The notes beneath the pieces were generated by a model. That model was not told the DNA's origin, made no database searches, and saw only the letters and a program-made list of their open reading frames with translations. Source: an uncultured Bacilli bacterium (GTDB lineage: Bacteria; Bacillota_I; Bacilli_A; RF39; UBA660). From it: 64,000 bases of DNA. Of the stretch, positions 1 to 64,000 are shown one piece after another. A program made the translations under genes and the position numbers. The stretch spans positions 3,542 to 67,541 of the forward strand of contig CANRPK010000004.1 in NCBI GenBank assembly GCA_947632455.1, in the 5' to 3' direction. Each line of letters starts with the position of its first letter. Positions within the stretch are counted from its first letter, which is position 1.

Positions 1-1200
1 GAAGAAGTAGAGATAGAATATTTAAATAGTGAAATAAATATATCTCACTTAACCGAAAAAGGAACAAAATGTTATATCTATTTTGATAGTTTAGTAAAAG
101 AAATGTTAGGAAAGTTAGAAACATCAAAAGGAAGTAAATATACCATAGATGCCATGCCAAATCCCATAACTGGAATGTATGATGAAAATACAGAAAATCC
201 AGAACATAAAGAGAAATTATATACAACCGAAGATAACTATGGAACCAGTTATGTGTTTAGGGGAAATAACAGTGATGTAAATAACTGGGTAACATTTGCA
301 AATCATACATGGAGGATAATCCGAATAAATGGAGATGGAACATTAAGGTTAATATATCAATGTGCAACTCCAGGATGTACAGATACAATCGGTGTAAATA
401 CACAAATAGGAAAAAGTACTTATAATGGTAAAGGCAATGATAACACCTATGTAGGATATTATTATGGAACAGCACACACAGATGAAAAACCAAGTCCAAG
501 TTATGAAGAAGCACATTCAAACTCTACACCAAGTACGATAGCTAAAGCAATAAATAATTGGTACAGTGGTACAGGAGCAATGACAGATTACACCAATTAT
601 TTAGATGGAAGTACAGGATTTTGCAATGATAGAGTAGTAGTAAAAGAAGTTTGGGATGGTTATGAAGGGAATGGAACAGGCCAGTCTGCAAGCGGATATG
701 GTCCGGCATCAAGGTTACTTACAAAAGGTGGAACCTGGAGAAAAAATCAATATCCAACATTAAAGTGTGGAGCAGTTATGCCTGATACAAATTCAACAGA
801 AGAAGAAGGATTTAAGAGTTTTGATGAAATCAATCCAGCAGCTTTAAAAAGAGATTTATTCACAACTAGTAATTCAGGAAGAGGTAATGAAGTGCTTACA
901 AATCCAGTAGGATTAATTACTAGTGATGAAGTAGCCATGACAGGAGCTTTTGGAGTAACGGTAGGAGCTAACTACTGGCTATATACCAACCAATATTATT
1001 GGACAATGTCTCCGTTTCGCTACAATGACACTGGTAGTGCTCTCATGTTTGATTTGCATGAGAATGGTCGCTTTGGCACACCAAGCGTGGGTGACGCTAC
1101 TCCTGGTGTACGTCCAGTAATCAATCTAAACGCTGATACAGAGTTCACAGGAGGAGACGGAAAATCATCCAATCCCTTTGTAGTTAATACAGGTAATTAA
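1..1200 (+). CDS. Paralog A of the repeated ~500-aa membrane-anchored/secreted protein family (5' end outside window)
   Basis: Frame 1 is open from nt 1 (EEVEIEYLNSEINISHLTEKGTKCYIYFDSLVKEMLGKLETSKGSKY...). It is collinear with residues ~105-504 of the copies at 47360..48874 and 61416..62954. Shared blocks: NYGTSYVFRGN, WRIIRINGDGTLRLIYQC, GFCNDR, YPTLKCG, YWLYTNQYYWTMSP, GVRPVINL. Confidence 0.9.
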   Translation, partial: EEVEIEYLNSEINISHLTEKGTKCYIYFDSLVKEMLGKLETSKGSKYTIDAMPNPITGMYDENTENPEHKEKLYTTEDNYGTSYVFRGNNSDVNNWVTFANHTWRIIRINGDGTLRLIYQCATPGCTDTIGVNTQIGKSTYNGKGNDNTYVGYYYGTAHTDEKPSPSYEEAHSNSTPSTIAKAINNWYSGTGAMTDYTNYLDGSTGFCNDRVVVKEVWDGYEGNGTGQSASGYGPASRLLTKGGTWRKNQYPTLKCGAVMPDTNSTEEEGFKSFDEINPAALKRDLFTTSNSGRGNEVLTNPVGLITSDEVAMTGAFGVTVGANYWLYTNQYYWTMSPFRYNDTGSALMFDLHENGRFGTPSVGDATPGVRPVINLNADTEFTGGDGKSSNPFVVNTGN

Positions 1201-13362: not shown

Positions 13363-13393
13363 CTACCATATAGCTAGTTTTTTTAACTAGTAT

Positions 13394-13421
13394 TTGACAA
13401 ATATTTTTAATATGTTATAAT
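13394..13421 (+). promoter_or_regulatory. Promoter of the TetR-family gene
   Basis: TTGACA (13394-13399), 16 nt, TGtTATAAT ending at 13421. Confidence 0.6.
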
Positions 13422-13461
13422 TTAAATAACAATAGTTACCAATTATAAAGGGAGTGAAATA

Positions 13462-14025
13462 ATGGCTGGCCGAAGTATAATAGATAAAGAAACTTTGTTA
13501 AAAGCAGCAATAGAAATGGTCGAAAACGAAGGCGTTGAAAGTATAAATGCTAGATCTTTGGCTACACATGCCGGAATTTCTACCAAACCAATATATCGCT
13601 TATATACTAGTCTAGATGATTTAAAACATGATGTTAATGAAATAATTAAAAAAGAATATAATGAATTTATAATGAGAAGAGTAGATACTAAAAATGCATT
13701 AATTACTTTATGTGTTGCCTATATAGAATTTGCTCAAATGCATAAAAATTATTTTAGATCAATGTTTCTATCTAATAACCTAAAATGGAAAAGTATTGAT
13801 GATGTTTTAAATGAAAAATGGAACCAAGGTGCTATAATAAATTTAGTAAATAAACATAATTTAAGTTTTGAAGAAGCTAAAGCTTTATTTATGAATGTTT
13901 GGCTATACGCAAATGGCTTAGCTACATTAATTGCCTCTAATGAACTTACGATTGATAATAAAGAAATACTTGTTAGAATAGTAAAAATATTTAAAGAATT
14001 TTCCAAAAATAAAATAACAAATTAA
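13462..14025 (+). CDS. TetR/AcrR-family transcriptional regulator
   Basis: N-terminal HTH LLKAAIEMVENEGVESINARSLATHAGISTKPIYRLY, ~190 aa. Confidence 0.8.
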   Translation: MAGRSIIDKETLLKAAIEMVENEGVESINARSLATHAGISTKPIYRLYTSLDDLKHDVNEIIKKEYNEFIMRRVDTKNALITLCVAYIEFAQMHKNYFRSMFLSNNLKWKSIDDVLNEKWNQGAIINLVNKHNLSFEEAKALFMNVWLYANGLATLIASNELTIDNKEILVRIVKIFKEFSKNKITN

Positions 14026-14033
14026 AAGTACTA

Positions 14034-14318
14034 TTATCTTATATATAATGGTACTTTTTGATTGACATCAATTATATTATAATTATTATCTAAAATAAAA
14101 TGATAATAATTATTTTTATTCTTAATATATATATTATAATTATTATTATTGTATATAACTTTTAAATATTTAATTTTATCTTCAGTATTTAAATAATTAC
14201 TAATAGTATTTTTAGTATCTTTTTCAATTATTTTATTAACTAATTTATAACAAAAAAGATTATAAAAAAGTAAAGATAAAACAATTATAAATATAACCAT
14301 TAAATTTTTAGCTTTCAT
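14034..14318 (-). CDS. Small membrane-anchored N/Y/I-rich hypothetical protein
   Basis: 94-aa ORF with an N-terminal TM helix (LMVIFIIVLSLLFYNLF); the rest is low-complexity. Confidence 0.4.
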   Translation of the reverse strand: MKAKNLMVIFIIVLSLLFYNLFCYKLVNKIIEKDTKNTISNYLNTEDKIKYLKVIYNNNNYNIYIKNKNNYYHFILDNNYNIIDVNQKVPLYIR

Positions 14319-14358: not shown

Positions 14359-14817
14359 TTAAATATTTAAATATTTGGGTTCATTAGTTCTCCCAAGTAA
14401 ATAATCCGCGGATATATTGTATTTCTTACATATTGTATATAAAAATGGTGTAGCAATTAAAGTTCTGCCTCTTTCATAATTAGCAATAACTGATCTATTA
14501 GTATTTAAATCACTAGCTAATACATCCTGAGTAAGTTTATTTTCTTTTCTAAAATTTTTTAATTTTTCCCCAGCTAAAACATTATTAGTATTGGAAAAAT
14601 AATTATCATATATAACTTGATTAGTAAAAGAAAAAATATAGTCTAAAGAAACATTAAAATATTCACTTATAGTTATTAAATGTTTTAAAGGTATTATCGT
14701 ATACTCAATTTCATATTGACTATATAATCCTCTTTTTATATTTAAAATATTAGCAACTTGTTCCTGAGTTAAACCATTTTCTTCCCTTAACTCTCTAATT
14801 TTATCACCATATAACAT
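14359..14817 (-). CDS. Tandem double-HTH XRE-family regulator, cassette B
   Basis: Two HTH_XRE-like modules: YGDKIRELREENGLTQEQVANIL... and AGEKLKNFRKENKLTQDVLASDL...ICKKYNISADYLLGR. GGTGA SD 7 nt before the ATG at 14817. The longer ORF to 14874 lacks paralog support. Confidence 0.85.
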   Translation of the reverse strand: MLYGDKIRELREENGLTQEQVANILNIKRGLYSQYEIEYTIIPLKHLITISEYFNVSLDYIFSFTNQVIYDNYFSNTNNVLAGEKLKNFRKENKLTQDVLASDLNTNRSVIANYERGRTLIATPFLYTICKKYNISADYLLGRTNEPKYLNI

Positions 14818-14892
14818 GTAATTGTCACCAAAAATAATTTTCTCATATAAGCAAATGTTTTTAAAAAAATGCATGAAATAGAAACGTTTTTC

Positions 14893-14947
14893 TTGACTTT
14901 AATAATATCAAAGTATATAATTTAAATATAAATTAGGAATTTCTAAT
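14893..14947 (+). promoter_or_regulatory. Cassette B promoter plus palindromic operator candidate
   Basis: TTGACT (14893-98), 17 nt, TATAAT (14916-21), then the 16-bp near-palindrome ATTAGGAATTTCTAAT (14932-47). The block is conserved in cassettes B, C, D, F and G. Confidence 0.75.
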
Positions 14948-14977
14948 AATATTGATAATGGAAAGGGAATAAGAGCA

Positions 14978-16501
14978 ATGAAATTAGAAAAGTTGGAGGA
15001 TAATACCTCCAAAGTAAAGGGAGTAATAATAGGGATATTACTAACTATTTTGTTAGTAATATTAATAAACTATATAACAAGTTTAGCAAGATATCGAAAC
15101 ACAGAAAGTATAGAATTAGCAAGTGGCAATATAAGCTATAATAAAGCTGATTTAAATATAATCGCCATGTATCAGGAAAAAGATGATTATGTAAGTGAAG
15201 ATGATAAATATACTAATATAAACAAAATACCAACGACTGGATATAAGCTAAGTTCACAAAGTTATTGTGAAGTAGGAAATCAAAAAGTAGAAGAAGCCGA
15301 AATAACATATGATGGACAATATATAGGAGTAAACAAATTAAGCGAAAAAGGAACAAAGTGTTATATATACTTTGATAGTATGGCAAGAGAAATGTTAGCG
15401 AAACTAGAAACATCCAAAGAAAGTAAATATACCATAGATGCCATGCCAAATCCGATAACTGGACAATATAATGCAGAAACAGAAAATCCAGATGGAAAAG
15501 AGAAATTATACACTAGTCCAGATAATTATGGAACAAGTTATGTATTTAGAGGAAACAATGATGATGTAAATAATTGGGTAAGTTTTGCTAGTCATACATG
15601 GCGAATAATCAGAATAAATGGAGATGGCACACTAAGGTTGATTTATCAATGTGCAACACCGAATTGTCAAACAACTGAAGGAGAAGAAACTCAAATAGGA
15701 AAAAGTGCATATAAATCAGCACCATATGATGATAACACTTATGTAGGATATTATTATGGAACAGCCCACACAGAAGAAAAACCAAATCCAACTTACGAGG
15801 AAACACACTCAAATTTAAAGCCCAGTACAATAGCTCAAGCTATTAATGATTGGTATAACGAAACAGGAGCAATGGGTGATTACACAGATTATCTAGATGG
15901 AAGTACAGGATTTTGCAACGATCGAGTAGTAGTAAAAGGAAATGCAAATGGACATGAAGGAAACGGAACTGGCCAATCAACAAGCGGATATGCGCCAGGA
16001 TCAAGAATAATGGTAAAAGGAGGATGGAGAAAAAATCAATATCCAACGTTAAAATGTGGAGTAGAAATGCCTGAAACAAATCCTTCAGAAGAAGATGCGT
16101 CAATAAGCTATTCAAATTTTGCCATTAATGAAAAAAATGTTAAAAGAGATTTATTCACAACCGAAGGTTCAAACCATGGAAATGGCGTCCTTTCAGTTCC
16201 AGCAGCCTTAATAACAAGCGATGAAGTAGTCATGGCCGGAGGATTTGGAGGTACTATTGGAACGGATTATTGGTTATATGTAAACCAATATTACTGGACA
16301 ATGTCCCCACTTAGCTATCCCGAGAGTGAAGAAAAGGCATTTATATTCATTGCGTATGTAAATGGCTTACTAAGTAGTGCTTGGGGTGTGAATTTTAGTG
16401 CTCCTACAGTGCGCCCAGTAATCAATCTAAACGCTGATATAGAGTTCACAGGAGGAAATGGTAAATCTGGTAGTCCATTTATAGTAAAAACAAACATATA
16501 A
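14978..16501 (+). CDS. Paralog B of the ~500-aa membrane-anchored/secreted protein family
   Basis: 507 aa with one N-terminal TM helix (VIIGILLTILLVILINYI), SLARYRNTESIELASGN, conserved Cys and the family blocks. GGAAAGGGAA SD. Confidence 0.9.
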   Translation: MKLEKLEDNTSKVKGVIIGILLTILLVILINYITSLARYRNTESIELASGNISYNKADLNIIAMYQEKDDYVSEDDKYTNINKIPTTGYKLSSQSYCEVGNQKVEEAEITYDGQYIGVNKLSEKGTKCYIYFDSMAREMLAKLETSKESKYTIDAMPNPITGQYNAETENPDGKEKLYTSPDNYGTSYVFRGNNDDVNNWVSFASHTWRIIRINGDGTLRLIYQCATPNCQTTEGEETQIGKSAYKSAPYDDNTYVGYYYGTAHTEEKPNPTYEETHSNLKPSTIAQAINDWYNETGAMGDYTDYLDGSTGFCNDRVVVKGNANGHEGNGTGQSTSGYAPGSRIMVKGGWRKNQYPTLKCGVEMPETNPSEEDASISYSNFAINEKNVKRDLFTTEGSNHGNGVLSVPAALITSDEVVMAGGFGGTIGTDYWLYVNQYYWTMSPLSYPESEEKAFIFIAYVNGLLSSAWGVNFSAPTVRPVINLNADIEFTGGNGKSGSPFIVKTNI

Positions 16502-16505
16502 AAAA

Positions 16506-16545
16506 CTTGCCTATGCGTCTTCTTCTTATTCTAAGCATAGGCAAG
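16506..16545 (+). repeat. Family 3' stem-loop, copy B (stem CTTGCCTATGC / GCATAGGCAAG, loop GTCTTCTTCTTATTCTAA)
   Basis: 11-bp perfect inverted repeat 5 nt after the stop codon. Confidence 0.8.
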
Positions 16546-16559
16546 ATATATTTATCAAT

Positions 16560-16585
16560 GATAGGAACAGATCCTATCTTTTTTT
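16560..16585. terminator. Terminator shared by convergent paralog B and regulator C
   Basis: GATAGGA-acag-ATCCTATC followed by a T-run; it abuts the stop of the minus-strand regulator. Confidence 0.7.
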
Positions 16586-17042
16586 ATTTATTTAAATATT
16601 TAGGTTCATCAATTCTGCCTAATAAGTAATCGGCAGAAATATTATACTTTTTACATATTGTATATAAAGTATGAGTAGCTATTAAAAAATCTCCACGTTC
16701 GTATTTAGATATAATTGTATTAACAACATTTAAAATATTTGCTAATTCCTTTTGTGACATCTTATATTCTTTTCGAAATTCTTTCAATCGTTGTCCAACT
16801 ATATTTTTATCAATAATTTTATTTATATTTTTATAAGATTTTTTCTTTGTAAAACTAAAAACGTAATCTAATGAAATATTAAAATAATCACATACATCAA
16901 TAAGGTGTTTTAAAGGCATTATATAATACTCTCTTTCATATTGCCCATATACATCAATATTTAAACCAAGCAGCTTAGACATAGAACGTTGAGTGACACC
17001 AAAATCTTCTCTAATAGCTTCGAGTTTATCTTTATATATCAT
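16584..17042 (-). CDS. Tandem double-HTH XRE-family regulator, cassette C
   Basis: MIYKDKLEAIREDFGVTQRSMSKLL... plus VGQRLKEFRKEYKMSQKELANIL...ICKKYNISADYLLGRIDEPKYL. AGGTGA SD. Confidence 0.85.
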   Translation of the reverse strand: MIYKDKLEAIREDFGVTQRSMSKLLGLNIDVYGQYEREYYIMPLKHLIDVCDYFNISLDYVFSFTKKKSYKNINKIIDKNIVGQRLKEFRKEYKMSQKELANILNVVNTIISKYERGDFLIATHTLYTICKKYNISADYLLGRIDEPKYLNK

Positions 17043-17116
17043 TAATAATCACCTAAAATAATTTTCGCATACAAAATAAACCAAAAATATAAAACGAGAA
17101 AATATTAGAATTTTTC

Positions 17117-17171
17117 TTGACTTTAATAATACCAAAGTATATAATTTAAATATAAATTAGGAATTTCTAAT
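17117..17171 (+). promoter_or_regulatory. Cassette C promoter plus palindromic operator candidate
   Basis: TTGACT (17117-22), 17 nt, TATAAT (17140-45), ATTAGGAATTTCTAAT (17156-71). Confidence 0.75.
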
Positions 17172-17201
17172 AATATTGATAATGGAAAGGGAATAAGAGC
17201 A

Positions 17202-18710
17202 ATGAAATTAGAAAAATTGGAGGATAATACCTCCAAAGTAAAGGGAGTAATAATAGGGATATTACTAACTATAGGTTTAGTAATATTAATAAACTATATA
17301 ACGAGTTTAGCAAGATATAGAAATACAGAGAGTATAGAACTAGCAAGTGGCAATATAAGTTATAATAAAGCAGATTTAAATATAATCGCCATGTATCAAG
17401 AAAAAGATGATAGTACTAAAGAAGAAAAAGAATATGTAAGTATAAATAAAATACCAACAGTTGGATATAAACTAAGTGAAGATAGTTATTGTGAAGTAGG
17501 TAGCGAGAGAGTAGAAGAAGCAGAATTTACATTAAATGAAAAGGGAATAACAATAGCAAACTTACAAGAAAAAGGAACAAAATGTTATGTATACTTTGAT
17601 AGTTTATCAAGAGAGATGCTAACTAAATTAGAAAAATCAAAACAAAGTAAATATACTATAGATAAAATGCCAAGTCCCATAACTGGAATATATGATGAAC
17701 AAAAAGAAAATCCCGAAGGAAAAGAGAAGTTATATACAACCGAAGATAATTATGGAACAAGTTATGTGTTTAGAGGAAACAATGATGATGTAAATAACTG
17801 GGTAACATTTGCCAATCATACATGGAGAATAATTAGAATAAATGGAGATGGCACACTAAGGTTGATTTATCAATGTGCAGAACCAAATTGTGAAACAACT
17901 GAAGGAGAAGAAACTCAAATAAGAAGAAGTTCATATAAATTAGAACCATATGATGACAATGCCTATGTCGGCTATTATTATGGAACAGCGCACACAGAAG
18001 AAAAACCAAATCCACCATATGATGAAGTTCACTCAAATTCCCATCCAAGTACTATAGCATATGCGGTTGATGGTTGGTATAGTGGAACAGGAGCAATGGG
18101 TAATTATACAGACTATCTAGATGGAAACACTGGATGGTGTAATGATCGAACGGTAGTAAAAAATATTCAGCCTGATTATAACGGAAATGGAACAGGTCAA
18201 ACGGCAACAGGATATGGTCCAGCAGCAAGATTAATGTTTAATAGAACTTGGAGAACAAAACAATATCCGACATTAAAGTGTGGAGTAGTAATGCCAGATG
18301 AAGCTCCAACTGAAGAAGAAGGATTTAGCAGTTTTGATAAAATAGATCCAATAGCATTAAAAAGGGACTTATTCACAACCTCTGGTACTGGTATAGGCAA
18401 TGAAGTACTTACAAATCCAGTAGGCTTAATCACAAGTGACGAATTAGTTATGGCTGGAGGCTTTGGAGGCAAAGCCGGAACTAACTACTGGCTTTATACC
18501 AACCTATATTATTGGACAATGTCGCCGTGGGGCTATGATGTCGATAGTTTGGCTCGCGTGTTCTGTGTACATGATAGTGGTCTCATCCTCAATTCAGGCG
18601 CTATAGACCCTTATGGTGCGCGTCCAGTAGTTAATCTGAAGGCTGATACAACATTCTCAGGAGGAAATGGTAAATCTGATAATCCATTCGTAGTAAAAAC
18701 AAACATATAA
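17202..18710 (+). CDS. Paralog C of the ~500-aa family
   Basis: 502 aa. Same N-terminus as B and D, with the family blocks including GWCNDR, YPTLKCG, YWLYTNLYYWTMSP and ARPVVNL. Confidence 0.9.
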   Translation: MKLEKLEDNTSKVKGVIIGILLTIGLVILINYITSLARYRNTESIELASGNISYNKADLNIIAMYQEKDDSTKEEKEYVSINKIPTVGYKLSEDSYCEVGSERVEEAEFTLNEKGITIANLQEKGTKCYVYFDSLSREMLTKLEKSKQSKYTIDKMPSPITGIYDEQKENPEGKEKLYTTEDNYGTSYVFRGNNDDVNNWVTFANHTWRIIRINGDGTLRLIYQCAEPNCETTEGEETQIRRSSYKLEPYDDNAYVGYYYGTAHTEEKPNPPYDEVHSNSHPSTIAYAVDGWYSGTGAMGNYTDYLDGNTGWCNDRTVVKNIQPDYNGNGTGQTATGYGPAARLMFNRTWRTKQYPTLKCGVVMPDEAPTEEEGFSSFDKIDPIALKRDLFTTSGTGIGNEVLTNPVGLITSDELVMAGGFGGKAGTNYWLYTNLYYWTMSPWGYDVDSLARVFCVHDSGLILNSGAIDPYGARPVVNLKADTTFSGGNGKSDNPFVVKTNI

Positions 18711-18714
18711 AAAA

Positions 18715-18754
18715 CTTGCCTATGCGTCTTCTTCTTATTCTGAGTATAGGCAAG
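18715..18754 (+). repeat. Family 3' stem-loop, copy C (as copy B, but one pair is G.U)
   Basis: CTTGCCTATGC ... GTATAGGCAAG with loop GTCTTCTTCTTATTCTGA. Confidence 0.75.
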
Positions 18755-18768
18755 ATATATTTATCAAT

Positions 18769-18791
18769 GATAGGGAGCGTCCCTATCTTTT
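18769..18791 (+). terminator. Terminator of paralog C
   Basis: GATAGGGA-gcg-TCCCTATC followed by TTTT. Confidence 0.7.
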
Positions 18792-18844: not shown

Positions 18845-19759
18845 ATGGAAGAAATAAGTATGCTAGAACGATATGGCGAAAATTTAACGAATAAAAATTA
18901 TATTACAGATCCCGCTATTGGTCGTGAGCAAGAAATAAAACAAATGATTTTAACCTTATTAACTCCTGAAAAAAGTGCTTTATTAGTTGGTAAGCCAGGT
19001 ATAGGAAAAACAGCTATAGTTGAAGGATTAGCTTATCGTATAATTAAAGGTTATGTTCCCGATGTTTTACTAAATTATGAAATTATCAAAATAAATATAA
19101 CCAGTTTATTAGGTAGTGAAAATGTTTCTGGTACTGCTGAAAATCGCATTGATTTATTAGTTAGAGAATTAGCCAAAAAAGATAATGTCATCATTTTTAT
19201 AGATGAAACTCATTTACTAGTAAATAAAGAAGGAGGCCTTGACTTTGCTAACATGTTAAAAGCTGGTCTAGACCGTGGTACAATAAAAATGATTGGCGCT
19301 ACCACTACTGAAGAATATGAACATTATATTTTAAGAGATCGTGCCTTTTTAAGAAGATTTCAAAAAATTGAAGTTGAAGAAGCTGATAAAGAAACAACAG
19401 TTAGTATATTAATGGGAACCCTTCCCAAAATTGAAAAACAAGTCGGGGTAAAATGTGAATATACTGATTTTATTAAAACTAAAATAATGCGTTTTATTGT
19501 AGAAATGACTGATGAGTATAAAAGGGTATATGAAATAGCCTCACGTTATCCTGATATATGTTTAACGATAGTATCTAATGCATATACTTATGCTTTATAT
19601 GATAATGTTAAATCAGTCACATTAAAACATTTTTATAAAGCTATATGTAATGCCAAAAATATTTATGAAGATGCTAAATTAAAGGAAATAGAAAGATTTA
19701 AAGTTGAATTTGCTGATATGATAAAGGAAGAAGGAGTAGATTTAAATGAGCAAAATTAA
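18845..19759 (+). CDS. Stand-alone Clp/Hsp100 D1-type AAA+ ATPase module (no N-domain, no D2)
   Basis: [32 protein letters not shown], Walker [19 protein letters not shown], Walker [41 protein letters not shown]. It reads like ClpB/ClpC NBD1 but is only 304 aa. Confidence 0.7.
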
Positions 19760-35572: not shown

Positions 35573-35573
35573 A

Positions 35574-37124: not shown

Positions 37125-37125
37125 A

Positions 37126-44794: not shown

Positions 44795-45247
44795 TTATAA
44801 AGAATGTTTAGAATTATCAATTTTCCCTAATAAATAATCCGCGGATATATTTAATTTCTCACAATAAGTATATAAAAAAGAAGTAGTAATAAATGTCTTC
44901 CCTTGTTCATATCTACACCAAACAGAATGATCAATATTAAGTAAAACTCCCACTCTAACTTGAGTTAAACCAGCATCTTTTCTGCTTTCTTTAAGTCTTT
45001 TAGTTAAAATATCTTTATCATATCCCTTTCTACTATTTATATAATTATAATTATTAGTAAACCCAAAAATATAATCTAAAGAAACATTAAAATAATCACA
45101 AAACTTAATTAAATTTTTCAAAGTAATAGTATCATGAGCCGTTTCATTCATTCCATACGTTCCTAAAGATATACCTAAAATTTTAGCTATATCTTTTTGC
45201 TTTAAATTATTATTTTCTCGTATTATTCGCAGTCTCTTTAACTCCAT
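44795..45247 (-). CDS. Tandem double-HTH XRE-family regulator, cassette D (most divergent)
   Basis: MELKRLRIIRENNNLKQKDIAKIL... plus LTKRLKESRKDAGLTQVRVGVLL...CEKLNISADYLLGKID. GGTGA SD before the ATG at 45247. Confidence 0.8.
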   Translation of the reverse strand: MELKRLRIIRENNNLKQKDIAKILGISLGTYGMNETAHDTITLKNLIKFCDYFNVSLDYIFGFTNNYNYINSRKGYDKDILTKRLKESRKDAGLTQVRVGVLLNIDHSVWCRYEQGKTFITTSFLYTYCEKLNISADYLLGKIDNSKHSL

Positions 45248-45319: not shown

Positions 45320-45374
45320 TTGACTTTAATAATAGCAAAGTATATAATTTAAATATAAATTAGGAATTTCTAAT
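45320..45374 (+). promoter_or_regulatory. Cassette D promoter plus palindromic operator candidate
   Basis: TTGACT (45320-25), 17 nt, TATAAT (45343-48), ATTAGGAATTTCTAAT (45359-74). Confidence 0.75.
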
Positions 45375-45404: not shown

Positions 45405-46895
45405 ATGAAATTAGAAAAATTGGAGGATAATACCTCCAAAGTAAAGGGAGTAATAATAGGGATATTACTAACTATAGGATTAGTAATATTAATAAACTAT
45501 ATAACGAGTTTAGCAAGATATCGAAATACAGAGAGTATAGAGCTAGCAAGTGGAAATATAAGTTATAATAAAGCAGATCTAAATATAATAGCAATGTATC
45601 AAGAAAGTAGTTATGGTACAAATGGCTATAAACAAATAGATGATGTACCAACTGAAAAATATACCTTAAGTAATAAAAGCTATTGTGAAGTAGGAGGACA
45701 AAAAGTAGAAGAAGCCCAAATAACATATGAAGAAGGGTATATAAGTGTAAGTAAAATAAATAAAAGAGGAACAAAATGCTATATATATTTTGATATGGAT
45801 TATACATCAGAAGATATGTTAGCAAAACTAGAAGCAACAAAACAAAGCAAATATACCATAGACACAATGCCAAGCCCAATCACAGGACCATATGATGAGA
45901 ATACAGAAAATCCAGAACATAAAGAGAAATTATATACAGCCGAAGATAATTATGGAACAAGCTATGTATTTAGAGGAAATAATAATGATGTAAATAACTG
46001 GGTAACATTTGCTAATCATACATGGAGAATAATCAGAATAAATGGCGATGGAACATTAAGAATGATCTATCAATGCGCAACACCTGGATGTACAGACACC
46101 GAAAGAGATAGTACCCAAATATCATGGGGAATTCCTTATAAATCAGCCCCAACTGATGATAATACCTATGCGGGCTATTATTATGGGGAACCAAACCAAG
46201 AAGAAGGGGAAGAAGGATTTAAAGAAACCCATTCAAATAAGTACCCAAATGATATTGTGAAAGTAATAAAAAATTGGTACACAACTGATCGTGGTAAAAT
46301 GACAGAATACACAAAATATTTAAGCGGAGATACAGGATTTTGTAATGATCGAGTTGTTGTAAATGTTCCAGGTTATGGTAAAGGCACAGGCAAATCTATA
46401 ACAATATTTGGATCATCAATTCGGCATAATAACATTAACAAATATAGAACTGAACAGTACCCAACTTTAAAATGCGGTGCAAATATTACCAGCCCTGAAA
46501 TAAAAAATTTGACAAATTTTGAAATTGATGAAAATGCTTTAAAAAGAGATTTATATACATTAGAAGGATCTAGTCAAGGCAATGGGGTATTAGATATTCC
46601 GGCAGCAACAATCACAAATGATGAAGCAGTTATGGCCGGAGGCTTTATGGGAACAGCATCAACAAATTATTGGCTATATACTAATGGAGGCTATTGGACA
46701 ATGTCTCCGGCTGGTTATAATATCAATAATTGGTCAAGTATATTCCGCGTTAATGGTGATGGAGCAATAACAAGTGGAAATGCACAAGATACATGGTTAG
46801 GAATTCGCCCAGTAATAAACTTGAATGCTGATGCTCAATTTACACAAGGAGATGGAACTCCAACTAATCCTTTTATAGTAAATACAGACATATAA
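45405..46895 (+). CDS. Paralog D of the ~500-aa family (most divergent C-terminal half)
   Basis: 496 aa. N-terminus identical in type to B and C. Family blocks are retained (GFCNDR, YPTLKCG, YWLYTNGGYWTMSP, IRPVINL). Confidence 0.9.
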   Translation: MKLEKLEDNTSKVKGVIIGILLTIGLVILINYITSLARYRNTESIELASGNISYNKADLNIIAMYQESSYGTNGYKQIDDVPTEKYTLSNKSYCEVGGQKVEEAQITYEEGYISVSKINKRGTKCYIYFDMDYTSEDMLAKLEATKQSKYTIDTMPSPITGPYDENTENPEHKEKLYTAEDNYGTSYVFRGNNNDVNNWVTFANHTWRIIRINGDGTLRMIYQCATPGCTDTERDSTQISWGIPYKSAPTDDNTYAGYYYGEPNQEEGEEGFKETHSNKYPNDIVKVIKNWYTTDRGKMTEYTKYLSGDTGFCNDRVVVNVPGYGKGTGKSITIFGSSIRHNNINKYRTEQYPTLKCGANITSPEIKNLTNFEIDENALKRDLYTLEGSSQGNGVLDIPAATITNDEAVMAGGFMGTASTNYWLYTNGGYWTMSPAGYNINNWSSIFRVNGDGAITSGNAQDTWLGIRPVINLNADAQFTQGDGTPTNPFIVNTDI

Positions 46896-46899: not shown

Positions 46900-46939
46900 C
46901 TTGCCTATACGTCTTCTTCTTATTCTAAGTATAGGCAAG
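46900..46939 (+). repeat. Family 3' stem-loop, copy D (stem CTTGCCTATAC / GTATAGGCAAG)
   Basis: 11-bp perfect inverted repeat with loop GTCTTCTTCTTATTCTAA. Confidence 0.8.
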
Positions 46940-46951: not shown

Positions 46952-46974
46952 AATAGGGTTTACCCCTATTTTTT
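46952..46974. terminator. Terminator between paralog D and the convergent regulator E
   Basis: AATAGGG-tttac-CCCTATT followed by a T-run. Confidence 0.65.
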
Positions 46975-47197
46975 ATTTTATTATACTTTTTGGATAGGGC
47001 TTTCTCTCATCAGTTTGATAAAGTAAATAATCAATACTAGTGTTATAATATAATGCTAGTTTTTTTAATATATCCGTAGGTATATCATTTGTTTCAACCT
47101 CATATTTTGAATAACCTGTTTGGGACATATTCAAATATTTTGCAACATCTTTTTGGTATAAGTCTCTATCTTCTCTAAGTTCTTTTAATCTATTCAT
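46973..47197 (-). CDS. Single-HTH XRE-family regulator, cassette E
   Basis: 74 aa: MNRLKELREDRDLYQKDVAKYLNMSQTGYSKYEVETNDIPTDILKKLALYYNTSIDYLL. Confidence 0.85.
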   Translation of the reverse strand: MNRLKELREDRDLYQKDVAKYLNMSQTGYSKYEVETNDIPTDILKKLALYYNTSIDYLLYQTDERKPYPKSIIK

Positions 47198-47240
47198 TCT
47201 ATATCCTCATAAGCACTTTATCATAATCTAAAATAGATTA

Positions 47241-47294
47241 TTGACTTTTAACCCAAAATGGCTTATTATATTAATATAACCCAAAACAGGTTAT
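47241..47294 (+). promoter_or_regulatory. Cassette E control region: a different promoter and two 19-nt AACCCAAAA repeats
   Basis: TTGACT (47241-46), 17 nt, TATTAT (47264-69). TTAACCCAAAATGGCTTAT (47248-66) and ATAACCCAAAACAGGTTAT (47276-94); the latter is an ATAACC-N7-GGTTAT inverted repeat. There is no ATTAGGAATTTCTAAT palindrome here. Confidence 0.6.
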
Positions 47295-47359
47295 AAAGAT
47301 ATATGAACTTTTTGTAATAAACGGATAATTATTACATTATAAAGGAGGAAAGGAAAGAT

Positions 47360-48874
47360 ATGAAATTAAAAGGGTTAAGTAAAGAAAAAGATAAAAAATT
47401 ATTTATATGTGGTTTTATAGTATGTGCAATATTATTTATAGTAATAAACTATATAACCAGTTTAGCAAGATATAGGAATACAGAGAGTATAGAACTAGCA
47501 AGTGGAAATATAAACTACAATAAAGCAGATCTAAACATAATAGCAATGTATCAAGAAAAAGATAATAGCACTAAAGAAGAAAAAGAATATGTAAGTATAA
47601 GTAAGATACCTACAACAGGATATAAATTAAGTGAAGATAGTTATTGTGAAGTAGGTAAACAAAGAGTAGAAGAAGCAGAAATAATATATGATGGACAATA
47701 TATAGGAGTAAACAAACTAAGTGAAAAAGGAACAAAATGTTATATATATTTTGATAGTTTAGTAAAAGAGATGTTAGGTAAATTGGAAACTTCAAAGGGA
47801 AGTAAATATAGCATAGATGCAATGCCAAATCCCATAACTGGAATGTATGATGAAACTACAGAAAATCCAGAAGGAAAAGAAAAATTATATACAACCGAAG
47901 ATAACTATGGAACAAGTTATGTATTTAGGGGAAACAACGATGATGTAAATAACTGGGTAACATTTGCAAATCATACATGGAGGATAATCAGAATAAATGG
48001 AGATGGCACATTAAGAATGATATACCAATGTGCAGAACCAAATTGTACAACAACCGAAGGAGCTGAAACTCAAATAGGAAGAAGCGCATATAATAGTGAA
48101 AACAATGATAACACTTATGTCGGCTATTATTATGGAACAGCACATACAGATGAAAAACCAAATCCAAGTTATGACGAAACTCATTCAAATTCAACTCCTA
48201 GTACAGTAGCAAAAACAATAGAAACGTGGTATACCGACACAGGGAAAATGAATGATTATACCGATTACTTAGATGGAAATACAGGATGGTGTAATGATCG
48301 AACAGTGGTAAAAAATGTTTGGCCTGATTATAACGGAAATGGTACTGGTCAAACCGCAACAAGTTATGCACCTTCATCAAGATTAATTCCAACTAACCAA
48401 GGCTGGAGAACAAAACAATATCCAACATTAAAGTGTGGTGCAAAAATGCCCGAAACAAGTCCATCAAATGATACTGGATTTAGTAGTTTTGATGAAATAG
48501 ATCCTATAGCTTTAAAAAGAGATTTATATACAATAGAAGGATCAAATAGAGGAAATGCAAAGCTTTCAGTTCCAGCTGCATTAATTACTAGTGATGAATA
48601 TGTTATGGCCGGAGGTTTTGCAGGTGCTGTATCAACTAACTACTGGCTATATACTAACCAAACTTATTGGACAATCTCTCCAATTTACTACCTTGCCAAT
48701 AATGATACAGTTCAAGTATTCTTTGTGCGTGCTGATGGTGCCCTCTTCGGTGGTTGGAGTGTGAATTGGACTACTCCTGGTGCACGCCCAGTAATCAACC
48801 TAAAATCTAATATTGAATTTAGTGGAGGTACTGGTAAATCTGATAATCCTTTTATAGTTAATACAGGTAATTAA
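47360..48874 (+). CDS. Paralog E of the ~500-aa family
   Basis: 504 aa with the alternative N-terminus MKLKGLSKEKDKKLFICGFIVCAILFIV shared with F. Family blocks are present. Confidence 0.9.
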   Translation: MKLKGLSKEKDKKLFICGFIVCAILFIVINYITSLARYRNTESIELASGNINYNKADLNIIAMYQEKDNSTKEEKEYVSISKIPTTGYKLSEDSYCEVGKQRVEEAEIIYDGQYIGVNKLSEKGTKCYIYFDSLVKEMLGKLETSKGSKYSIDAMPNPITGMYDETTENPEGKEKLYTTEDNYGTSYVFRGNNDDVNNWVTFANHTWRIIRINGDGTLRMIYQCAEPNCTTTEGAETQIGRSAYNSENNDNTYVGYYYGTAHTDEKPNPSYDETHSNSTPSTVAKTIETWYTDTGKMNDYTDYLDGNTGWCNDRTVVKNVWPDYNGNGTGQTATSYAPSSRLIPTNQGWRTKQYPTLKCGAKMPETSPSNDTGFSSFDEIDPIALKRDLYTIEGSNRGNAKLSVPAALITSDEYVMAGGFAGAVSTNYWLYTNQTYWTISPIYYLANNDTVQVFFVRADGALFGGWSVNWTTPGARPVINLKSNIEFSGGTGKSDNPFIVNTGN

Positions 48875-48876: not shown

Positions 48877-48914
48877 CTTGCTTATATTGCTTTCTTATTC
48901 CAAATATAAGCAAG
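48877..48914 (+). repeat. Family 3' stem-loop, copy E (same variant as copy A)
   Basis: CTTGCTTATATT / AATATAAGCAAG with loop GCTTTCTTATTCCA. Confidence 0.8.
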
Positions 48915-60810: not shown

Positions 60811-61263
60811 TCAAAAACTAATAGAATCATCAATTCTTCCCATTAAATAATCCGCGGATATATTATATTTTTTACATATATCATATAAATATAAAGTATT
60901 AATAAGCATTCTCCCTCGTTCATAATCAGAAATAACTGATTGAGTAGTATTAAGTATATTTTTTAAATCATTTTGTGTTAATTTTTTTTCTTTTCTAAAT
61001 TCTTTTAATCTATTCCCAGCATCTTTATTATCAACATCTAATCGTATCCTATTATAATTTTTATCTTTAGTAAATCCAAATATATAATCTAAGGAAATAT
61101 TAAAGTAATTTGCTACTTTAATTAAATGCTTAATAGGCATTATATAATATTCTCTTTCATATTGCCCATATACATCAATATCTAGTTCTAACATAGTAGA
61201 AACAGCCCGTTGGGTAATTCCTAAATTTTCCCTAATTTCCTTCAACTTTTCGCCATATATCAT
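60811..61263 (-). CDS. Tandem double-HTH XRE-family regulator, cassette F
   Basis: MIYGEKLKEIRENLGITQRAVSTML... plus AGNRLKEFRKEKKLTQNDLKNIL...ICKKYNISADYLMGRID. AGGTGA SD before the ATG at 61263. Confidence 0.85.
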   Translation of the reverse strand: MIYGEKLKEIRENLGITQRAVSTMLELDIDVYGQYEREYYIMPIKHLIKVANYFNISLDYIFGFTKDKNYNRIRLDVDNKDAGNRLKEFRKEKKLTQNDLKNILNTTQSVISDYERGRMLINTLYLYDICKKYNISADYLMGRIDDSISF

Positions 61264-61339: not shown

Positions 61340-61394
61340 TTGACTTTGATAATAGCAGATATTATAATTTAAATATAAATTAGAAATTTCTAAT
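61340..61394 (+). promoter_or_regulatory. Cassette F promoter plus perfect 16-bp palindrome
   Basis: TTGACT (61340-45), 17 nt, TATAAT (61363-68), ATTAGAAATTTCTAAT (61379-94, perfectly self-complementary). Confidence 0.75.
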
Positions 61395-61415: not shown

Positions 61416-62954
61416 ATGAAATTAAAAGGGTTAAGTAAAGAAAAAGATAAGAAATTATTTATATATGGTTTTATAGTATGTGCAATATTATTTATAGTAA
61501 TAAACTATATAACAAGCCTAGCAAGATATAGAAATACAGAAAGTATAGAACTAGCAAGTGGAAATATAAGTTATAATAAAGCAGATTTAAATATAATAGC
61601 GATATATCAAGAAAAAGATAATAGTACATCTGAAGAAAAAGAATATGTAAGTATAAGTAAGATACCTACAGCAGGATATAAACTAAGCAATAAAAGTTAT
61701 TGTGAAGTAGGAAAACAAAGAGTAGAAGAAGCAGAATTTACATTAAATGAAAAAGGAATAACAATAGCAAACTTACAAGAAAAAGGAACAAAATGTTATA
61801 TATACTTTGATAGCCTAGTAAAAGAGATGTTAGGTAAATTGGAAACTTCAAAAGGAAGCAAATATACAATCGATGCAATGCCTAATCCGATTACTGGAGT
61901 ATATAATGCAGATGTAGAAAATCCCGAAGGAAAAGATAAATTATATATTAGTCCAGACAATTATGGAACAAGTTATGTCTTTAGAGGAAATAATGATGAT
62001 GTAAATAATTGGGTAAATTTTGCTAATCATACATGGAGAATAATCAGGATAAATGGAGATGGCACATTAAGGTTAATATTTCAATGTGCAGAACCAAATT
62101 GTACAGATACAACAGGAGAAAAAACTATTGCATTAGGCGGAACTGCTTATAAGCCTACCCAATTTGATGATAATACCTATGTAGGATATTATTATGGAAC
62201 ATCAAAAGCAAATAAAGGAGATGCCGGAGATCCAACATATGAAGAAGCTCATTCAAATACTACACCAAGTAATATAGCTAATGCAGTTCAGACATGGTAT
62301 AACGAAGCCGGAGCGATGAAAAATTATACAGAATATCTAGATGGAAATACGGGATGGTGTAATGATCGAACAGTAGTAAAAAATGTTTGGTCTAATTATG
62401 ACGGAAATGGTACTGGTCAGACTGCAACAGGTTATGCCCCGGCTTCTAGATTAATAGTAAAAAATGAAACTTATGGAGATTTTCGAACAAAACAATATCC
62501 AACGTTGAAGTGTGGAGTAGAAATGCCAGAAGAAAACCAATCAGAGGAAACGGCATCAAATGATTTTATTAATTTTGATATAAATGATGCATTTCTAAAA
62601 AGGGATTTATTTACAATAGAAGGCTCAAGTCTAGGTAATGCTAAACTTCCAGTACCAGCTGCATTAATCACAAGTGATGAAATAGTAATGGCAGGGGGCT
62701 TTGGAGGTACTGTATCAACTGATTACTGGCTATACACTAACCAATATTATTGGACAATGTCTCCGTATCACTATTATATTACTGATAAGTGGGCTGCCGT
62801 GTTCGTTGTACGTGATAGTGGCATCCTCGGTGGTGGCGCTGTGAATTGGACTACTCCTGGTGTGCGTCCAGTAATTAATCTTAATGCCAATATAGAATTT
62901 AGTGGAGGAAATGGTAAATCTAGTAGTCCATTTATAGTAAATACAAGTAATTAA
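61416..62954 (+). CDS. Paralog F of the ~500-aa family
   Basis: 512 aa. N-terminus of the E type; the second block is the same as in C. Family blocks are present. Confidence 0.9.
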   Translation: MKLKGLSKEKDKKLFIYGFIVCAILFIVINYITSLARYRNTESIELASGNISYNKADLNIIAIYQEKDNSTSEEKEYVSISKIPTAGYKLSNKSYCEVGKQRVEEAEFTLNEKGITIANLQEKGTKCYIYFDSLVKEMLGKLETSKGSKYTIDAMPNPITGVYNADVENPEGKDKLYISPDNYGTSYVFRGNNDDVNNWVNFANHTWRIIRINGDGTLRLIFQCAEPNCTDTTGEKTIALGGTAYKPTQFDDNTYVGYYYGTSKANKGDAGDPTYEEAHSNTTPSNIANAVQTWYNEAGAMKNYTEYLDGNTGWCNDRTVVKNVWSNYDGNGTGQTATGYAPASRLIVKNETYGDFRTKQYPTLKCGVEMPEENQSEETASNDFINFDINDAFLKRDLFTIEGSSLGNAKLPVPAALITSDEIVMAGGFGGTVSTDYWLYTNQYYWTMSPYHYYITDKWAAVFVVRDSGILGGGAVNWTTPGVRPVINLNANIEFSGGNGKSSSPFIVNTSN

Positions 62955-62956: not shown

Positions 62957-62996
62957 ATATGCCTATACTGCTTTCTTATTCCAAGTATAGGCATAT
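62957..62996 (+). repeat. Family 3' stem-loop, copy F (stem ATATGCCTATAC / GTATAGGCATAT)
   Basis: 12-bp perfect inverted repeat with loop TGCTTTCTTATTCCAA. Confidence 0.8.
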
Positions 62997-63035: not shown

Positions 63036-63488
63036 TTAAAAACTAATAGGTTCATCAATTCTTCCAAGTAAATAATCTGCAGATATATTATATTTCTTAC
63101 ATATTGTATATAAAAATGGTGTAGAAATTAAATATCTACCTCGTTCATAATCCGCTATAACAGATTGAGTAGTGTTTAAATAATTAGCAAGTTCTAATTG
63201 GGTAAGTTTAAGACTTTTACGCCACTCTTTAAGATTTTTACCAGCTTTAATATTATTTGCTTTTTTCTTAATATTTTTATATTCTTGAATAGAAGTAAAA
63301 CTAAAAATAAAATCTAAAGAAACATTAAAATAATTACATAAAGTAATTAAATGTTTAATTGGAATAGTTTGTTTTTCCTTTTCATATCTTCCATATAGAC
63401 TTTTATCAATTTCTAACATTTTTGACATTTCAGTTTGACTAATTCCAATTCTTTCTCTCATATTTTTTATGTTTTCTCCATAATTCAT
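63036..63488 (-). CDS. Tandem double-HTH XRE-family regulator, cassette G
   Basis: MNYGENIKNMRERIGISQTEMSKML... plus AGKNLKEWRKSLKLTQLELANYL...ICKKYNISADYLLGRIDEP. GGTGA SD before the ATG at 63488. Confidence 0.85.
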   Translation of the reverse strand: MNYGENIKNMRERIGISQTEMSKMLEIDKSLYGRYEKEKQTIPIKHLITLCNYFNVSLDFIFSFTSIQEYKNIKKKANNIKAGKNLKEWRKSLKLTQLELANYLNTTQSVIADYERGRYLISTPFLYTICKKYNISADYLLGRIDEPISF

Positions 63489-63561: not shown

Positions 63562-63616
63562 TTGACTTTGAGTATATCAAAGTATATAATTTAAATATAA
63601 GTTAGGAATTTCTAAT
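63562..63616 (+). promoter_or_regulatory. Cassette G promoter plus palindromic operator candidate
   Basis: TTGACT (63562-67), 17 nt, TATAAT (63585-90), GTTAGGAATTTCTAAT (63601-16). Confidence 0.7.
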
Positions 63617-63637: not shown

Positions 63638-64000
63638 ATGAAAATAGAAAGGTTAGATACAGATAATAAAAGGAATAAAACAATATTTGCAGTAGGTTTT
63701 ATTTTAGCAATAATATTAGTAATAGTAATAAATTATATAACCAGTTTAGCAAGATATCGAAATACAGAAAGTATAGAACTAGCAAGTGGAAATATAAACT
63801 ACAATAAGGCAGATTTAAATATAATAGCGATGTATCAAGAAAGTAGTTATAGTACAAATGGCTATAAACAAATAGATGATGTGCCAACTGAAAAATATAC
63901 ATTAAGTAATAAAAGCTATTGTGAAGTAAATAAAGAAAAAGTTGAAGAAGCCCAAATAACATATGAAGAAGGATATATAAGCGTAAGTAAAATAAATAAA
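63638..64000 (+). CDS. Paralog G of the ~500-aa family (3' end outside window)
   Basis: Not in the ORF track because it is open-ended. Hand translation: MKIERLDTDNKRNKTIFAVGFILAIILVIVINYITSLARYRNTESIELASGNINYNKADLNIIAMYQESSYSTNGYKQIDDVPTEKYTLSNKSYCEV...EEAQITYEEGYISVSKINK. This is a third N-terminal type, and the second block is as in D. Confidence 0.85.
   Translation, partial: MKIERLDTDNKRNKTIFAVGFILAIILVIVINYITSLARYRNTESIELASGNINYNKADLNIIAMYQESSYSTNGYKQIDDVPTEKYTLSNKSYCEVNKEKVEEAQITYEEGYISVSKINK

Follow-up and report, generated by a model that had tools for sequence, protein, structure and literature searches.

Multi-copy cassettes pairing XRE-type regulators with hypervariable, predicted exported DUF6273-like proteins in an uncultured gut Bacilli bacterium

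Organisation of the cassettes

We analysed a 64-kb stretch of contig CANRPK010000004.1 (assembly GCA_947632455.1) from an uncultured Bacilli bacterium; this whole stretch, and not the cassette alone, is called the window below. It contains a repeated cassette, in which the gene of a protein of about 500 amino acids (aa) is preceded by a divergently transcribed gene of a small helix-turn-helix (HTH) regulator of the XRE type. A preliminary description of the region had listed seven paralogous large genes and six divergent regulators, and the map of open reading frames (ORFs) and the translations reproduce each of their coordinates. They are designated here A0 to A6 and R1 to R6, respectively (Table 1). 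The summed length of these genes is 11,643 bp (18% of the window), in agreement with the initial estimate of about 11.6 kb.

The seven large ORFs align as paralogs, with 59-70% identity to the first. The six cysteines and all motif blocks noted previously are present across the large ORFs. Of 83 homologs, 82-83 keep Cys97/128 and Cys313/360; 47 have Cys225 and 47 have Cys230, and these two probably occur together. This pattern is as expected of disulfides, and thus fits an extracytoplasmic protein. The N-terminal hydrophobic helix is closed by (S/T)-x-A in 81-82 of the 83 homologs and may be a cleavable Sec signal peptide; a signal anchor fits as well. The proteins had been called membrane-anchored: the helix is confirmed, and the anchoring is not certain. 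No conserved cysteine that could form a lipobox was observed before residue 97 in the window copies or the 83 homologs. A type IV pilin-like N-terminus was rejected, as the G/FTLxE-type motif is absent, judged by eye.

Five regulators consist of two HTH_3/HTH_19 modules in 150-152 aa, and R4 has one. The modules score above the Pfam cut-offs (PF01381, PF12844; for example, HTH_3 at 92.2 bits and HTH_19 at 96.6 bits), and Pfam and the AlphaFold2 model agree with the initial reading of five tandem proteins of about 150 aa. Conservation is higher in the C-terminal module than in the N-terminal one (60% versus 51% in the window, 69% versus 52% over 44 homologs). The supposed near-invariance of the C-terminal module, however, does not extend beyond a 15-aa motif of helices 4 and 5, which is structural and is not the recognition helix. 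The model of the tandem regulator has two five-helix bundles in a fixed arrangement and a linker (pLDDT 95, pTM 0.88), and contains no oligomerisation or sensor domain. The PDB matches found with Foldseek, C.BclI, P22 C2, ImmR and SinR, each cover one HTH only. Full-length tandem-HTH homologs are found in temperate Firmicutes phages (about 30% identity). One two-HTH XRE protein, gp17 of the C. difficile phage phiCDKH01, was experimentally shown to be a repressor (PMC11172241).

Two relatives of the regulators, P0136 (233 aa) and P0142 (227 aa), are about 230 aa long and may have three HTH modules. A type II toxin-antitoxin module was considered and rejected: the genes are divergent with separate promoters, and the partner is an exported protein of about 500 aa with no toxin domain.

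Promoters, operators and regulator classes

The class I large genes (A1, A2, A3, A5 and A6) are preceded by candidate promoters that match the consensus in 11 of 12 positions and have a spacer fixed at 17 nt. Since these promoters are near-consensus, no activator should be needed. The 16-bp palindrome ATTAG(G/A)AATTTCTAAT, which had been noticed in the preliminary description and was recovered upstream of all five class I genes, lies ten bases downstream of the promoter. Within the window, its 12-bp core TAGRAATTTCTA is confined to the five class I intergenic regions. Of the claim that every locus has its own repressor but nearly the same operator, the operator part agrees with these five loci and fails for the cassette 46973..48874 (R4/A4), which forms a separate class (class II) with an operator pair of its own. 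Promoter identity among the window cassettes is 93-99%. No tandem repeats were observed in the promoters or 5' ends.

On the regulator side, the motif TATGAGAAAAT is present at four of the five class I regulators, and each regulator has a GGTGA ribosome-binding site. We take TATGAGAAAAT to be a weak extended -10 promoter of the TRTG type. The predicted start of R1, at 14817, is preceded by the GGTGA Shine-Dalgarno box, and the longer ORF reaching 14874 is probably unused. No operator was found at the regulators' own promoters in the window intergenic regions, and so no feedback loop is evident. As the same operator is common to five loci with a regulator each, pooled cross-repression or co-regulation would be expected, and not mutual exclusion.

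Almost all related loci have a divergent XRE gene immediately before the target gene. Within 400 nt it is found in 50 of 65 loci, comprising 37 tandem-HTH and 13 single-HTH regulators; the pairing of each target with a cognate regulator and a promoter-proximal operator, as seen in the window, holds in these 50 loci across genera. The regulators are 85-95% identical where the targets are only 36-42% identical.

Three cassette classes emerge among the related loci. In class I, a tandem-HTH regulator is combined with a site of the TAGAAATTTCTA type at a fixed position; the operator core sits at the same place in distant loci, and the promoter and the left operator half are kept across genera, even at about 33% protein identity. 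In class II, a single-HTH regulator (74-80 aa) is combined with two copies of an inverted repeat of 18-20 bp, one in the -35/-10 spacer and the other after the -10 box. Class III has a third HTH type with another palindrome. The operator sequence covaries with the recognition helix of the regulator, as is apparent within class II: regulators with the helix SQTGYSKYE have ATAAC-N9-GTTAT sites, and those with TQQQYSKYE have ATACAC-N8-GTGTAT sites.

We suggest that the regulators repress the target genes, because a near-consensus promoter is followed by an operator at about +4 to +20. The repressor function of the nearest structural relatives, C.BclI, P22 C2 and ImmR, also counts for this role.

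Many related cassettes have an additional leader element, AAATGAAG(T/C)..., just upstream of the ribosome-binding site (for example, AAATGAAGTATAACTTAA and AAATGAAGCCTAGCATCATG). It was observed at loci L002, L003, L006-L008, L012, L015, L018, L024, L045, L049, L053, L056, L066, L077, L084, L088 and L105, and is absent from the window cassettes. A small hairpin is one possibility, a mini-ORF with MK as its first residues another. In locus L025, from human gut, two tandem-HTH regulators stand in a row, and the spacer between them (7274-7398) contains a second consensus promoter and an operator-like site, directed antisense into the first regulator. Perhaps a cassette was deleted here and left this piece behind, or perhaps the piece serves antisense control.

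Hairpins downstream of the large genes

The family genes are followed, 3-10 nt downstream of the stop codon, by a conserved hairpin with an 11-bp stem and a pyrimidine-rich loop of 14-18 nt. The transcription terminator is a separate structure. The same hairpin is found at the related loci L001, L003, L004, L006-L008, L010, L012, L013 and L020. Over 16 distinct sequences from several genomes the stem is 100% paired, with compensatory changes in six of the 11 pairs, and none of 500 shuffles equalled or exceeded the observed values. The stem pattern was found only behind family genes. An Rfam search with the leader and the 3' hairpin gave nothing credible.

Possible roles of the hairpin include mRNA stability, a protein-binding site and a recombination signal. 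One further candidate, an anti-Shine-Dalgarno function of the loop, was rejected: the loop is complementary to the ribosome-binding region because of its composition, and the duplex energies are no better than those of shuffled loops (mean z -0.5).

Table 1. Cassette features in the 64-kb window
Feature	Position	Strand	Basis
A0, DUF6273-like exported protein family (3' part, 399 codons + stop)	1..1200	+	translation, paralog alignment
Conserved 3' hairpin, 11-bp stem CTTGCTTATAT/ATATAAGCAAG, 16-nt pyrimidine-rich loop	1203..1240	+	covariation analysis
R1, tandem-HTH XRE (152 aa)	14359..14817	-	Pfam, alignment, AlphaFold2 model
R1 candidate extended -10 promoter TATGAGAAAAT	14834..14846	-	motif; assignment inferred
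A1 promoter TTGACT-17-TATAAT	14893..14921	+	intergenic comparison
A1 class I operator ATTAGGAATTTCTAAT	14932..14947	+	palindrome search; about +4 to +20 of inferred transcription start
A1 (507 aa)	14978..16501	+	translation, alignment, AlphaFold2 model, Foldseek
A1 conserved 3' hairpin	16506..16545	+	covariation analysis
A1 intrinsic terminator, stem GATAGG..CCTATC then T run	16560..16578	+	intergenic comparison
R2, tandem-HTH XRE (152 aa)	16584..17042	-	Pfam, alignment
Regulator motif TATGAGAAAAT, further copies	17058-17070, 61281-61293, 63502-63514	-	motif comparison
A2 promoter TTGACT-17-TATAAT	17117..17145	+	intergenic comparison
A2 class I operator ATTAGGAATTTCTAAT	17156..17171	+	palindrome search
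A2 (502 aa)	17202..18710	+	translation, paralog alignment
A2 conserved 3' hairpin, then terminator 18769-18787	18715..18754	+
R3, tandem-HTH XRE (150 aa)	44795..45247	-	Pfam, alignment
A3 promoter TTGACT-17-TATAAT	45320..45348	+	intergenic comparison
A3 class I operator ATTAGGAATTTCTAAT	45359..45374	+	palindrome search
A3 (496 aa)	45405..46895	+	translation, paralog alignment
A3 conserved 3' hairpin	46900..46939	+	stem pattern
R4, single-HTH XRE (74 aa), class II	46973..47197	-	Pfam; 85-91% identical to regulators of L002, L012, L008
A4 class II promoter TTGACT-17-TATTAT	47241..47269	+	intergenic comparison
Class II operator O1 TTAACCCAAAATGGCTTA, in -35/-10 spacer	47248..47265	+	inverted-repeat comparison
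Class II operator O2 ATAACCCAAAACAGGTTAT, just 3' of -10	47276..47294	+	inverted-repeat comparison
A4 (504 aa)	47360..48874	+	translation, paralog alignment
A4 conserved 3' hairpin	48877..48914	+	stem pattern
R5, tandem-HTH XRE (150 aa)	60811..61263	-	Pfam, alignment
A5 promoter TTGACT-17-TATAAT	61340..61368	+	intergenic comparison
A5 class I operator, perfect 16-bp palindrome ATTAGAAATTTCTAAT	61379..61394	+	palindrome search
A5 (512 aa)	61416..62954	+	translation, paralog alignment
A5 conserved 3' hairpin, variant stem TATGCCTATAC/GTATAGGCATA	62958..62995	+	covariation analysis
R6, tandem-HTH XRE (150 aa)	63036..63488	-	Pfam, alignment
A6 promoter TTGACT-17-TATAAT	63562..63590	+	intergenic comparison
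A6 class I operator GTTAGGAATTTCTAAT	63601..63616	+	palindrome search
A6 (5' part, 121 codons; continues past window edge)	63638..64000	+	translation, paralog alignment

Placement of the large proteins

The AlphaFold2 model of A1, built on the alignment of 83 sequences, has pLDDT 89.5 and pTM 0.85. The hydrophobic helix (residues 10-36) and a conserved linker of low confidence (37-57) are followed by a small beta domain (about 60-134) and a large alpha/beta, DUF6273-like domain (about 150-507). The window copies have no match in Pfam and NCBIfam scans, and PF19789 is absent even at E<=1. The PF19789 model is matched weakly (E<=0.1) by 35 of the 83 aligned homologs, and four relatives score above its cut-off: P0266 (49.1 bits), P0264 (32.9), P0261 (32.4) and P0300 (27.4). 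Their matches run through the C-terminal part of the model. In a profile search of PDB sequences with the large protein, the sole match was spurious (E 0.042).

The only credible match of the model in the PDB, found with Foldseek, is 9qa6, the immunoglobulin A (IgA) peptidase of T. ramosa (probability 0.97, E 4.8e-3, 349 columns). As the Foldseek output does not give the aligned region of 9qa6, we assume that it is the N-terminal domain. This domain (residues 31-322) is described in 2025 structure papers as a DUF6273 domain with an expanded C-type-lectin-like fold and unknown function (PMC12402451, PMC12237041). In the BFVD library of viral models, DUF6273 phage proteins match at E values from 1e-5 to 1e-3.

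The resemblance of the protein tail to DUF6273, noted in the preliminary description, is thus borne out by the weak matches of the homologs and the stronger ones of the relatives. The same description had left the proteins outside any characterised family; the Foldseek and BFVD matches, together with the Pfam scores of the relatives, place them. Judged from profile matches and the predicted structure, the proteins are a divergent, enlarged branch of DUF6273, and not formal members by the Pfam cut-off. Two giant relatives, P0255 (4905 aa) and P0256 (3528 aa), contain 8-28 matched stretches of the lectin-like domain.

Diversification of the coding regions

The window cassettes resemble one another in a mosaic manner: which two are closest depends on the segment. 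The PHI test gave an observed value of 0.435 against 0.5045 +/- 0.0064, and none of 2000 permutations was at or below the observed value. Variability among the paralogs is highest at residues 441-480, between YWTMSP and RPVINL.

The window was used as the reference for comparison with L110, a syntenic contig of a conspecific strain from another sample. The amino-acid identities are 98.7% for MnmG, 99.1% for RsmG, 100% for ParB, 98% for R1 and 100% for R2, as against 77.5% for A1 and 68.3% for A2. Nucleotide identity is 95-100% over the flanks, the regulators, the promoters and approximately the first 50 codons (to about 15160, and from 16528 to about 17370). Inside the A1 and A2 ORFs it is mosaic, 50-95%, and it rises again near the stop codon (approximately the last 30 codons); the 3' hairpin and the terminator are 100% identical. 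The synonymous divergence (dS) is 0.55 in A1 and 0.46 in A2, and ten times lower in the neighbours (0.02-0.06). Since low values in the neighbours are combined with high values and mosaic identity in the ORFs, these data point to replacement or conversion of the A1 and A2 alleles from divergent paralogs, and not merely to faster evolution. A further locus agrees with this: its regulator is identical to R6, and the adjoining target is only 65% identical to A5.

Two other modes of variation were rejected. Diversity-generating retroelements (DGRs) are not indicated: the window ORFs covered by the Pfam scans gave no RVT domain, and the only reverse transcriptase observed near a relative, at L025 (13967-14899), belongs to a retron (Ec107-like) and has no linked template/variable repeat pair. 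Phase variation by repeats or an invertase is not indicated either, as the window scans revealed no repeat tract, invertase or recombinase. The analogy with contingency loci, which had been drawn in the preliminary description, therefore finds no support.

Distribution and genomic setting

In an exhaustive profile search, at least 11,031 cluster representatives scored E<=1e-3; the stricter limit of E<=1e-30 left 3,228. At least 574 loci in species-representative genomes encode relatives. None of the family proteins carries a name in the databases. We read the source-genome labels for the best 80 of the at least 574 loci. All 80 lie in metagenome-assembled genomes (MAGs) from gut, of rabbit, human, mouse and chicken; the labels are uncultured Bacilli, Tenericutes, Mycoplasmatota, Mycoplasma sp. 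CAG:776 and Ca. Caccenecus, with one exception, Ruminococcus sp., which is probably a misassignment. We presume that the host lineage of these gut Bacilli is the RF39 grade. Many copies occur per genome, with at least 14 in one MAG. The regulator and target genes lie mostly on very short metagenomic contigs; for P0166, 309 of 333 blocks are on contigs shorter than 10 kb. The cassette repeats probably break assemblies, so that the copy numbers of the family in MAGs are underestimated.

The window is chromosomal, with a G+C content of about 27%. Its housekeeping ORFs are intact under genetic code 11, and hence the organism uses this code. The cassettes are neighboured by truA, rplM, rpsI, mnmE, mnmG, rsmG, parB, secG, cysS, uvrB and a surface-glycopolymer cluster. 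A cassette adjoins parB or parAB near the origin, in the mnmE-mnmG-rsmG region (window 12148-14318; L025 9524-11189; L110). The same position in the window genome, the sister strain and a distant human-gut relative suggests an ancestral insertion site.

The surface-glycopolymer cluster (34046-44768) lies directly upstream of the A3 and A4 cassettes. It encodes O-antigen-ligase-like, GT2/GT4/GT1 glycosyltransferase, sulfatase/lipoteichoic-acid-synthase-like, WecG/TagA-type and MraY/WecA-type proteins, and suggests an organism with a decorated envelope. Several candidate defence or conflict genes were observed near the cassettes: an AAA ATPase (18845-19759) with weak IetA/TRIP13-like matches, a Schlafen-group-3 helicase protein (20804-22663, minus strand; PADLOC PDC-S41), and a HipA-like kinase (4606-5805; PADLOC PDC-M03A) followed by a 211-aa ORF of no assigned family. 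A LigD-like protein (24466-25821) contains phosphoesterase and primase-polymerase domains, and a ligase domain is not among the matches listed. The CAP/SCP-domain protein at 25888-27192 contains an internal 51-nt tandem repeat (26516-26613) encoding a linker rich in Thr, Lys, Pro and Glu, and is likely to be another exported protein.

Interpretation and alternatives

With a probability of roughly 0.58, the cassettes encode repressor-gated, recombination-diversified, exported lectin-like binding proteins. Each cassette would be a self-contained expression unit for one exported ligand-binding protein. The sensor-less XRE repressor would be made from a weak extended -10 promoter and would bind the operator at about +4 to +20 of the near-consensus sigma-A promoter, keeping the target off by default. 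The class I cassettes, with tandem-HTH regulators, share one operator, and the five class I loci of the window would then form one cross-repressed regulon; the class II single-HTH regulators, with private operator pairs, would be insulated from it. The coding regions vary by duplication and gene conversion within a large pool of paralogs. Conversion tracts begin after about 50 codons, and the promoter and operator at one end and the hairpin and terminator at the other are constant between strains. The variation peaks at the C-terminal face of the lectin-like domain, the region that DGRs mutate in phage DUF6273 proteins. Surface display and ligand binding of the large proteins are suggested by the model and by analogy with the relatives. 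The earlier idea of an exported, variable repertoire agrees with the cysteine pairs, the predicted lectin-like fold, the mosaic paralogs and the ORFs that are hypervariable between strains. All this suggests a hitherto undescribed variable surface repertoire in an uncultured gut bacterium.

A number of observations weigh against this interpretation. The repressors have no sensor domain, and a route of derepression is not evident. By the profile used, 15 of the 65 related loci have no XRE gene. Among the tandem-HTH loci of other genera, many retain just the left half of the operator, and the class I operator is a palindrome although the two HTH modules of a tandem regulator differ from each other. 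As for the fold, the window copies fall below every Pfam threshold (the gathering score of PF19789 is 23.5 bits), and Foldseek gives low TM-scores (0.27 and 0.18; 0.17-0.27 overall) with a root-mean-square deviation of 10.4. Finally, R209, R212, N214, D391, D415 and E416 are invariant across the 83 homologs, and H277 is kept in 80 of them; D415, E416, H277, R209, R212 and N214 could form an active site instead of a binding site.

A bolder extension, which we offer as tentative and hold to be rather improbable, is a lectin repertoire of Mollicutes-like gut Bacilli that resembles the var genes of eukaryotes. Dozens of recombining DUF6273-type surface binders, with a sensor-less XRE repressor for each gene, would be governed by an operator code, in which the shared class I sites and the private class II and III sites choose the displayed subsets. 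Heritable and heterogeneous surface phenotypes would then arise without DGRs, invertases or repeat tracts. In the exchange of cassettes, their conserved ends, the 3' hairpin among them, would provide recombination signals or arms of homology.

It is unlikely that the large proteins are secreted enzymes acting on glycans or proteins, with paralogs differing in substrate specificity. The fold class does include enzymes, the formylglycine-generating enzyme belonging to the C-type-lectin-like class, the T. ramosa IgA peptidase combines the domain with a peptidase (PMC12402451), and the invariant polar residues listed above would suit catalysis. However, no catalytic family was found in the Pfam, NCBIfam and PDB sequence searches, and hypervariability between strains is typical of binding surfaces. 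[quoted passage not shown]

Somewhat less probable still is mutually exclusive or bistable expression with one paralog displayed per cell, as in antigenic variation, which was the wiring proposed in the preliminary description. It would suit a multigene family with hypervariable cores and conserved ends, in which every gene has its own regulator, and the private class II operators could permit independent switching. However, any regulator of the five class I loci should repress all five, as they have one operator; the regulator promoters lack it, which gives no hint of feedback; the window scans turned up neither a recombinase nor an invertible element or repeat tract; and a layout of silent cassettes and an expression site is absent, since a strong and complete promoter precedes each copy. 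There is thus no indication of mutually exclusive expression, and the common class I operator argues for co-regulation.

We consider quite improbable a phage-derived or anti-phage module, in which a CI-like repressor would control a decoy resembling a receptor-binding protein or a superinfection-exclusion protein. DUF6273 proteins are common as phage receptor-binding proteins (PMC10743442) and are among the BFVD matches; the regulators resemble phage repressors and match HTH models in PADLOC-DB, though only generic ones, and candidate defence genes adjoin the A2 cassette. However, PADLOC-DB gave no match for the large protein, on which ground a known defence system was rejected. Prophage origin was rejected too: tblastn against 50,697 phage genomes found no relative of the large protein, and the flanks are housekeeping genes. 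In addition, the parB-adjacent position is kept across genera, and the copies run to dozens per genome.

Equally doubtful is that the XRE genes do not control their neighbours, the palindrome being an RNA element of the 5' untranslated region or a site of another factor and the adjacency being due to co-duplication: the palindrome does lie inside the transcribed leader, the reading head of a tandem-HTH protein is asymmetric and the site symmetric, and the high promoter identity in the window could stem from recent gene conversion, but the pairing persists in distant homologs, the operator type follows the regulator class and recognition helix, the regulators and operators are far more conserved than the targets, and a loop-less 16-bp palindrome cannot make a useful RNA hairpin.

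If the cassettes are indeed repressor-gated, diversified binders, they have several implications. Their gut Bacilli hosts are prevalent in human and animal guts, are represented here only by MAGs and are functionally opaque; the cassettes, with 18% of the window and at least 574 loci, would explain a large share of the accessory coding capacity. It is in this part of the genome that strains otherwise identical to each other differ, and such variation is the expected signature of interplay with host immunity (IgA, for example), with glycans of host or dietary origin, with other microbes or with phages. DUF6273 would gain a cellular context beyond the phage DGR targets and the IgA peptidase N-terminal domain, and its variable face would be seen to diversify by a second route, gene conversion among paralogs. 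The regulator and operator pairs appear to be a compact, naturally orthogonal set of repressors.

Comparison with known systems

The components, namely XRE repressors, DUF6273 lectin-like domains and families diversified by gene conversion, are known. A prior description of this combination was not found in our literature searches, and in the literature searched it is new to find per-gene repressors, class-specific operators, a 3' hairpin, hypervariable ORFs and massive amplification together in an uncultured gut lineage.

The DUF6273 proteins of phages and DGR targets probably have the same fold class as the window family; they have the same C-terminal signature YW..SP ... RP(V/A), and likewise occur in gut Bacillota or their phages (PMC10743442, PMC11792537, PMC12237041). 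Both vary most towards the C-terminus of the domain, where the DGR variable regions of the phage proteins map (PMC11792537; 10.1101/2024.10.15.618418). However, the window family has neither a reverse transcriptase nor a template/variable repeat pair, which argues for diversification by recombination among paralogs. Compared to the Pfam DUF6273 model, its domain is about twice as long, and there are an N-terminal signal or anchor and an extra beta domain. Unlike the genes of the phage proteins, the window genes are chromosomal and multi-copy, and each appears to have a dedicated repressor.

The regulators R1-R6 have the HTH fold in common with small sensor-less XRE/Cro-C1 repressors, such as the restriction-modification controller proteins C.BclI and C.AhdI, P22 C2, ImmR of ICEBs1 and gp17 of phiCDKH01. 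The promoter is overlapped or abutted by the operator, which in class II comes in two copies, as in controller-protein systems. The differences are that the regulated gene encodes an exported lectin-like protein and is divergently transcribed, that there are many regulators per genome with an operator common to several, and that no solved structure spans both modules of the tandem form. The analogy with SinR and the tapA-sipW-tasA operon, proposed in the preliminary description, is a loose one. SinR is among the Foldseek matches of the regulator, and in both cases an XRE-type HTH repressor stands over genes of an exported protein. However, SinR carries an oligomerisation domain at its C-terminus and has SinI as its antagonist (PDB 1b0n), whereas the window regulators consist of HTH domains only, two in the tandem form, with no sensor domain and no SinI-like partner seen. 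Nor does the target form an operon or encode a fibre protein, and the likeness stops at the HTH repressor.

The surface families Vsp, Vpma and vlhA of Mycoplasma, pilE/pilS of Neisseria, vlsE of Borrelia and msp2/p44 of Anaplasma are diversified by gene conversion, and their conserved 5' and 3' ends enclose a mosaic hypervariable core, as in the window family. Replacement at the strain level is also common to both, and the host lineage is related to Mollicutes. However, the window proteins have none of the features of phase-variable lipoproteins of Mollicutes: there is no lipobox cysteine, no switching repeats and no recombinase in the window. Nor is there a site-specific recombinase or repeat-tract switch as in the other gene-conversion families, or an expression site with silent cassettes. 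Instead, every window copy has a full strong promoter of its own, and control appears to be exerted by per-gene XRE repressors.

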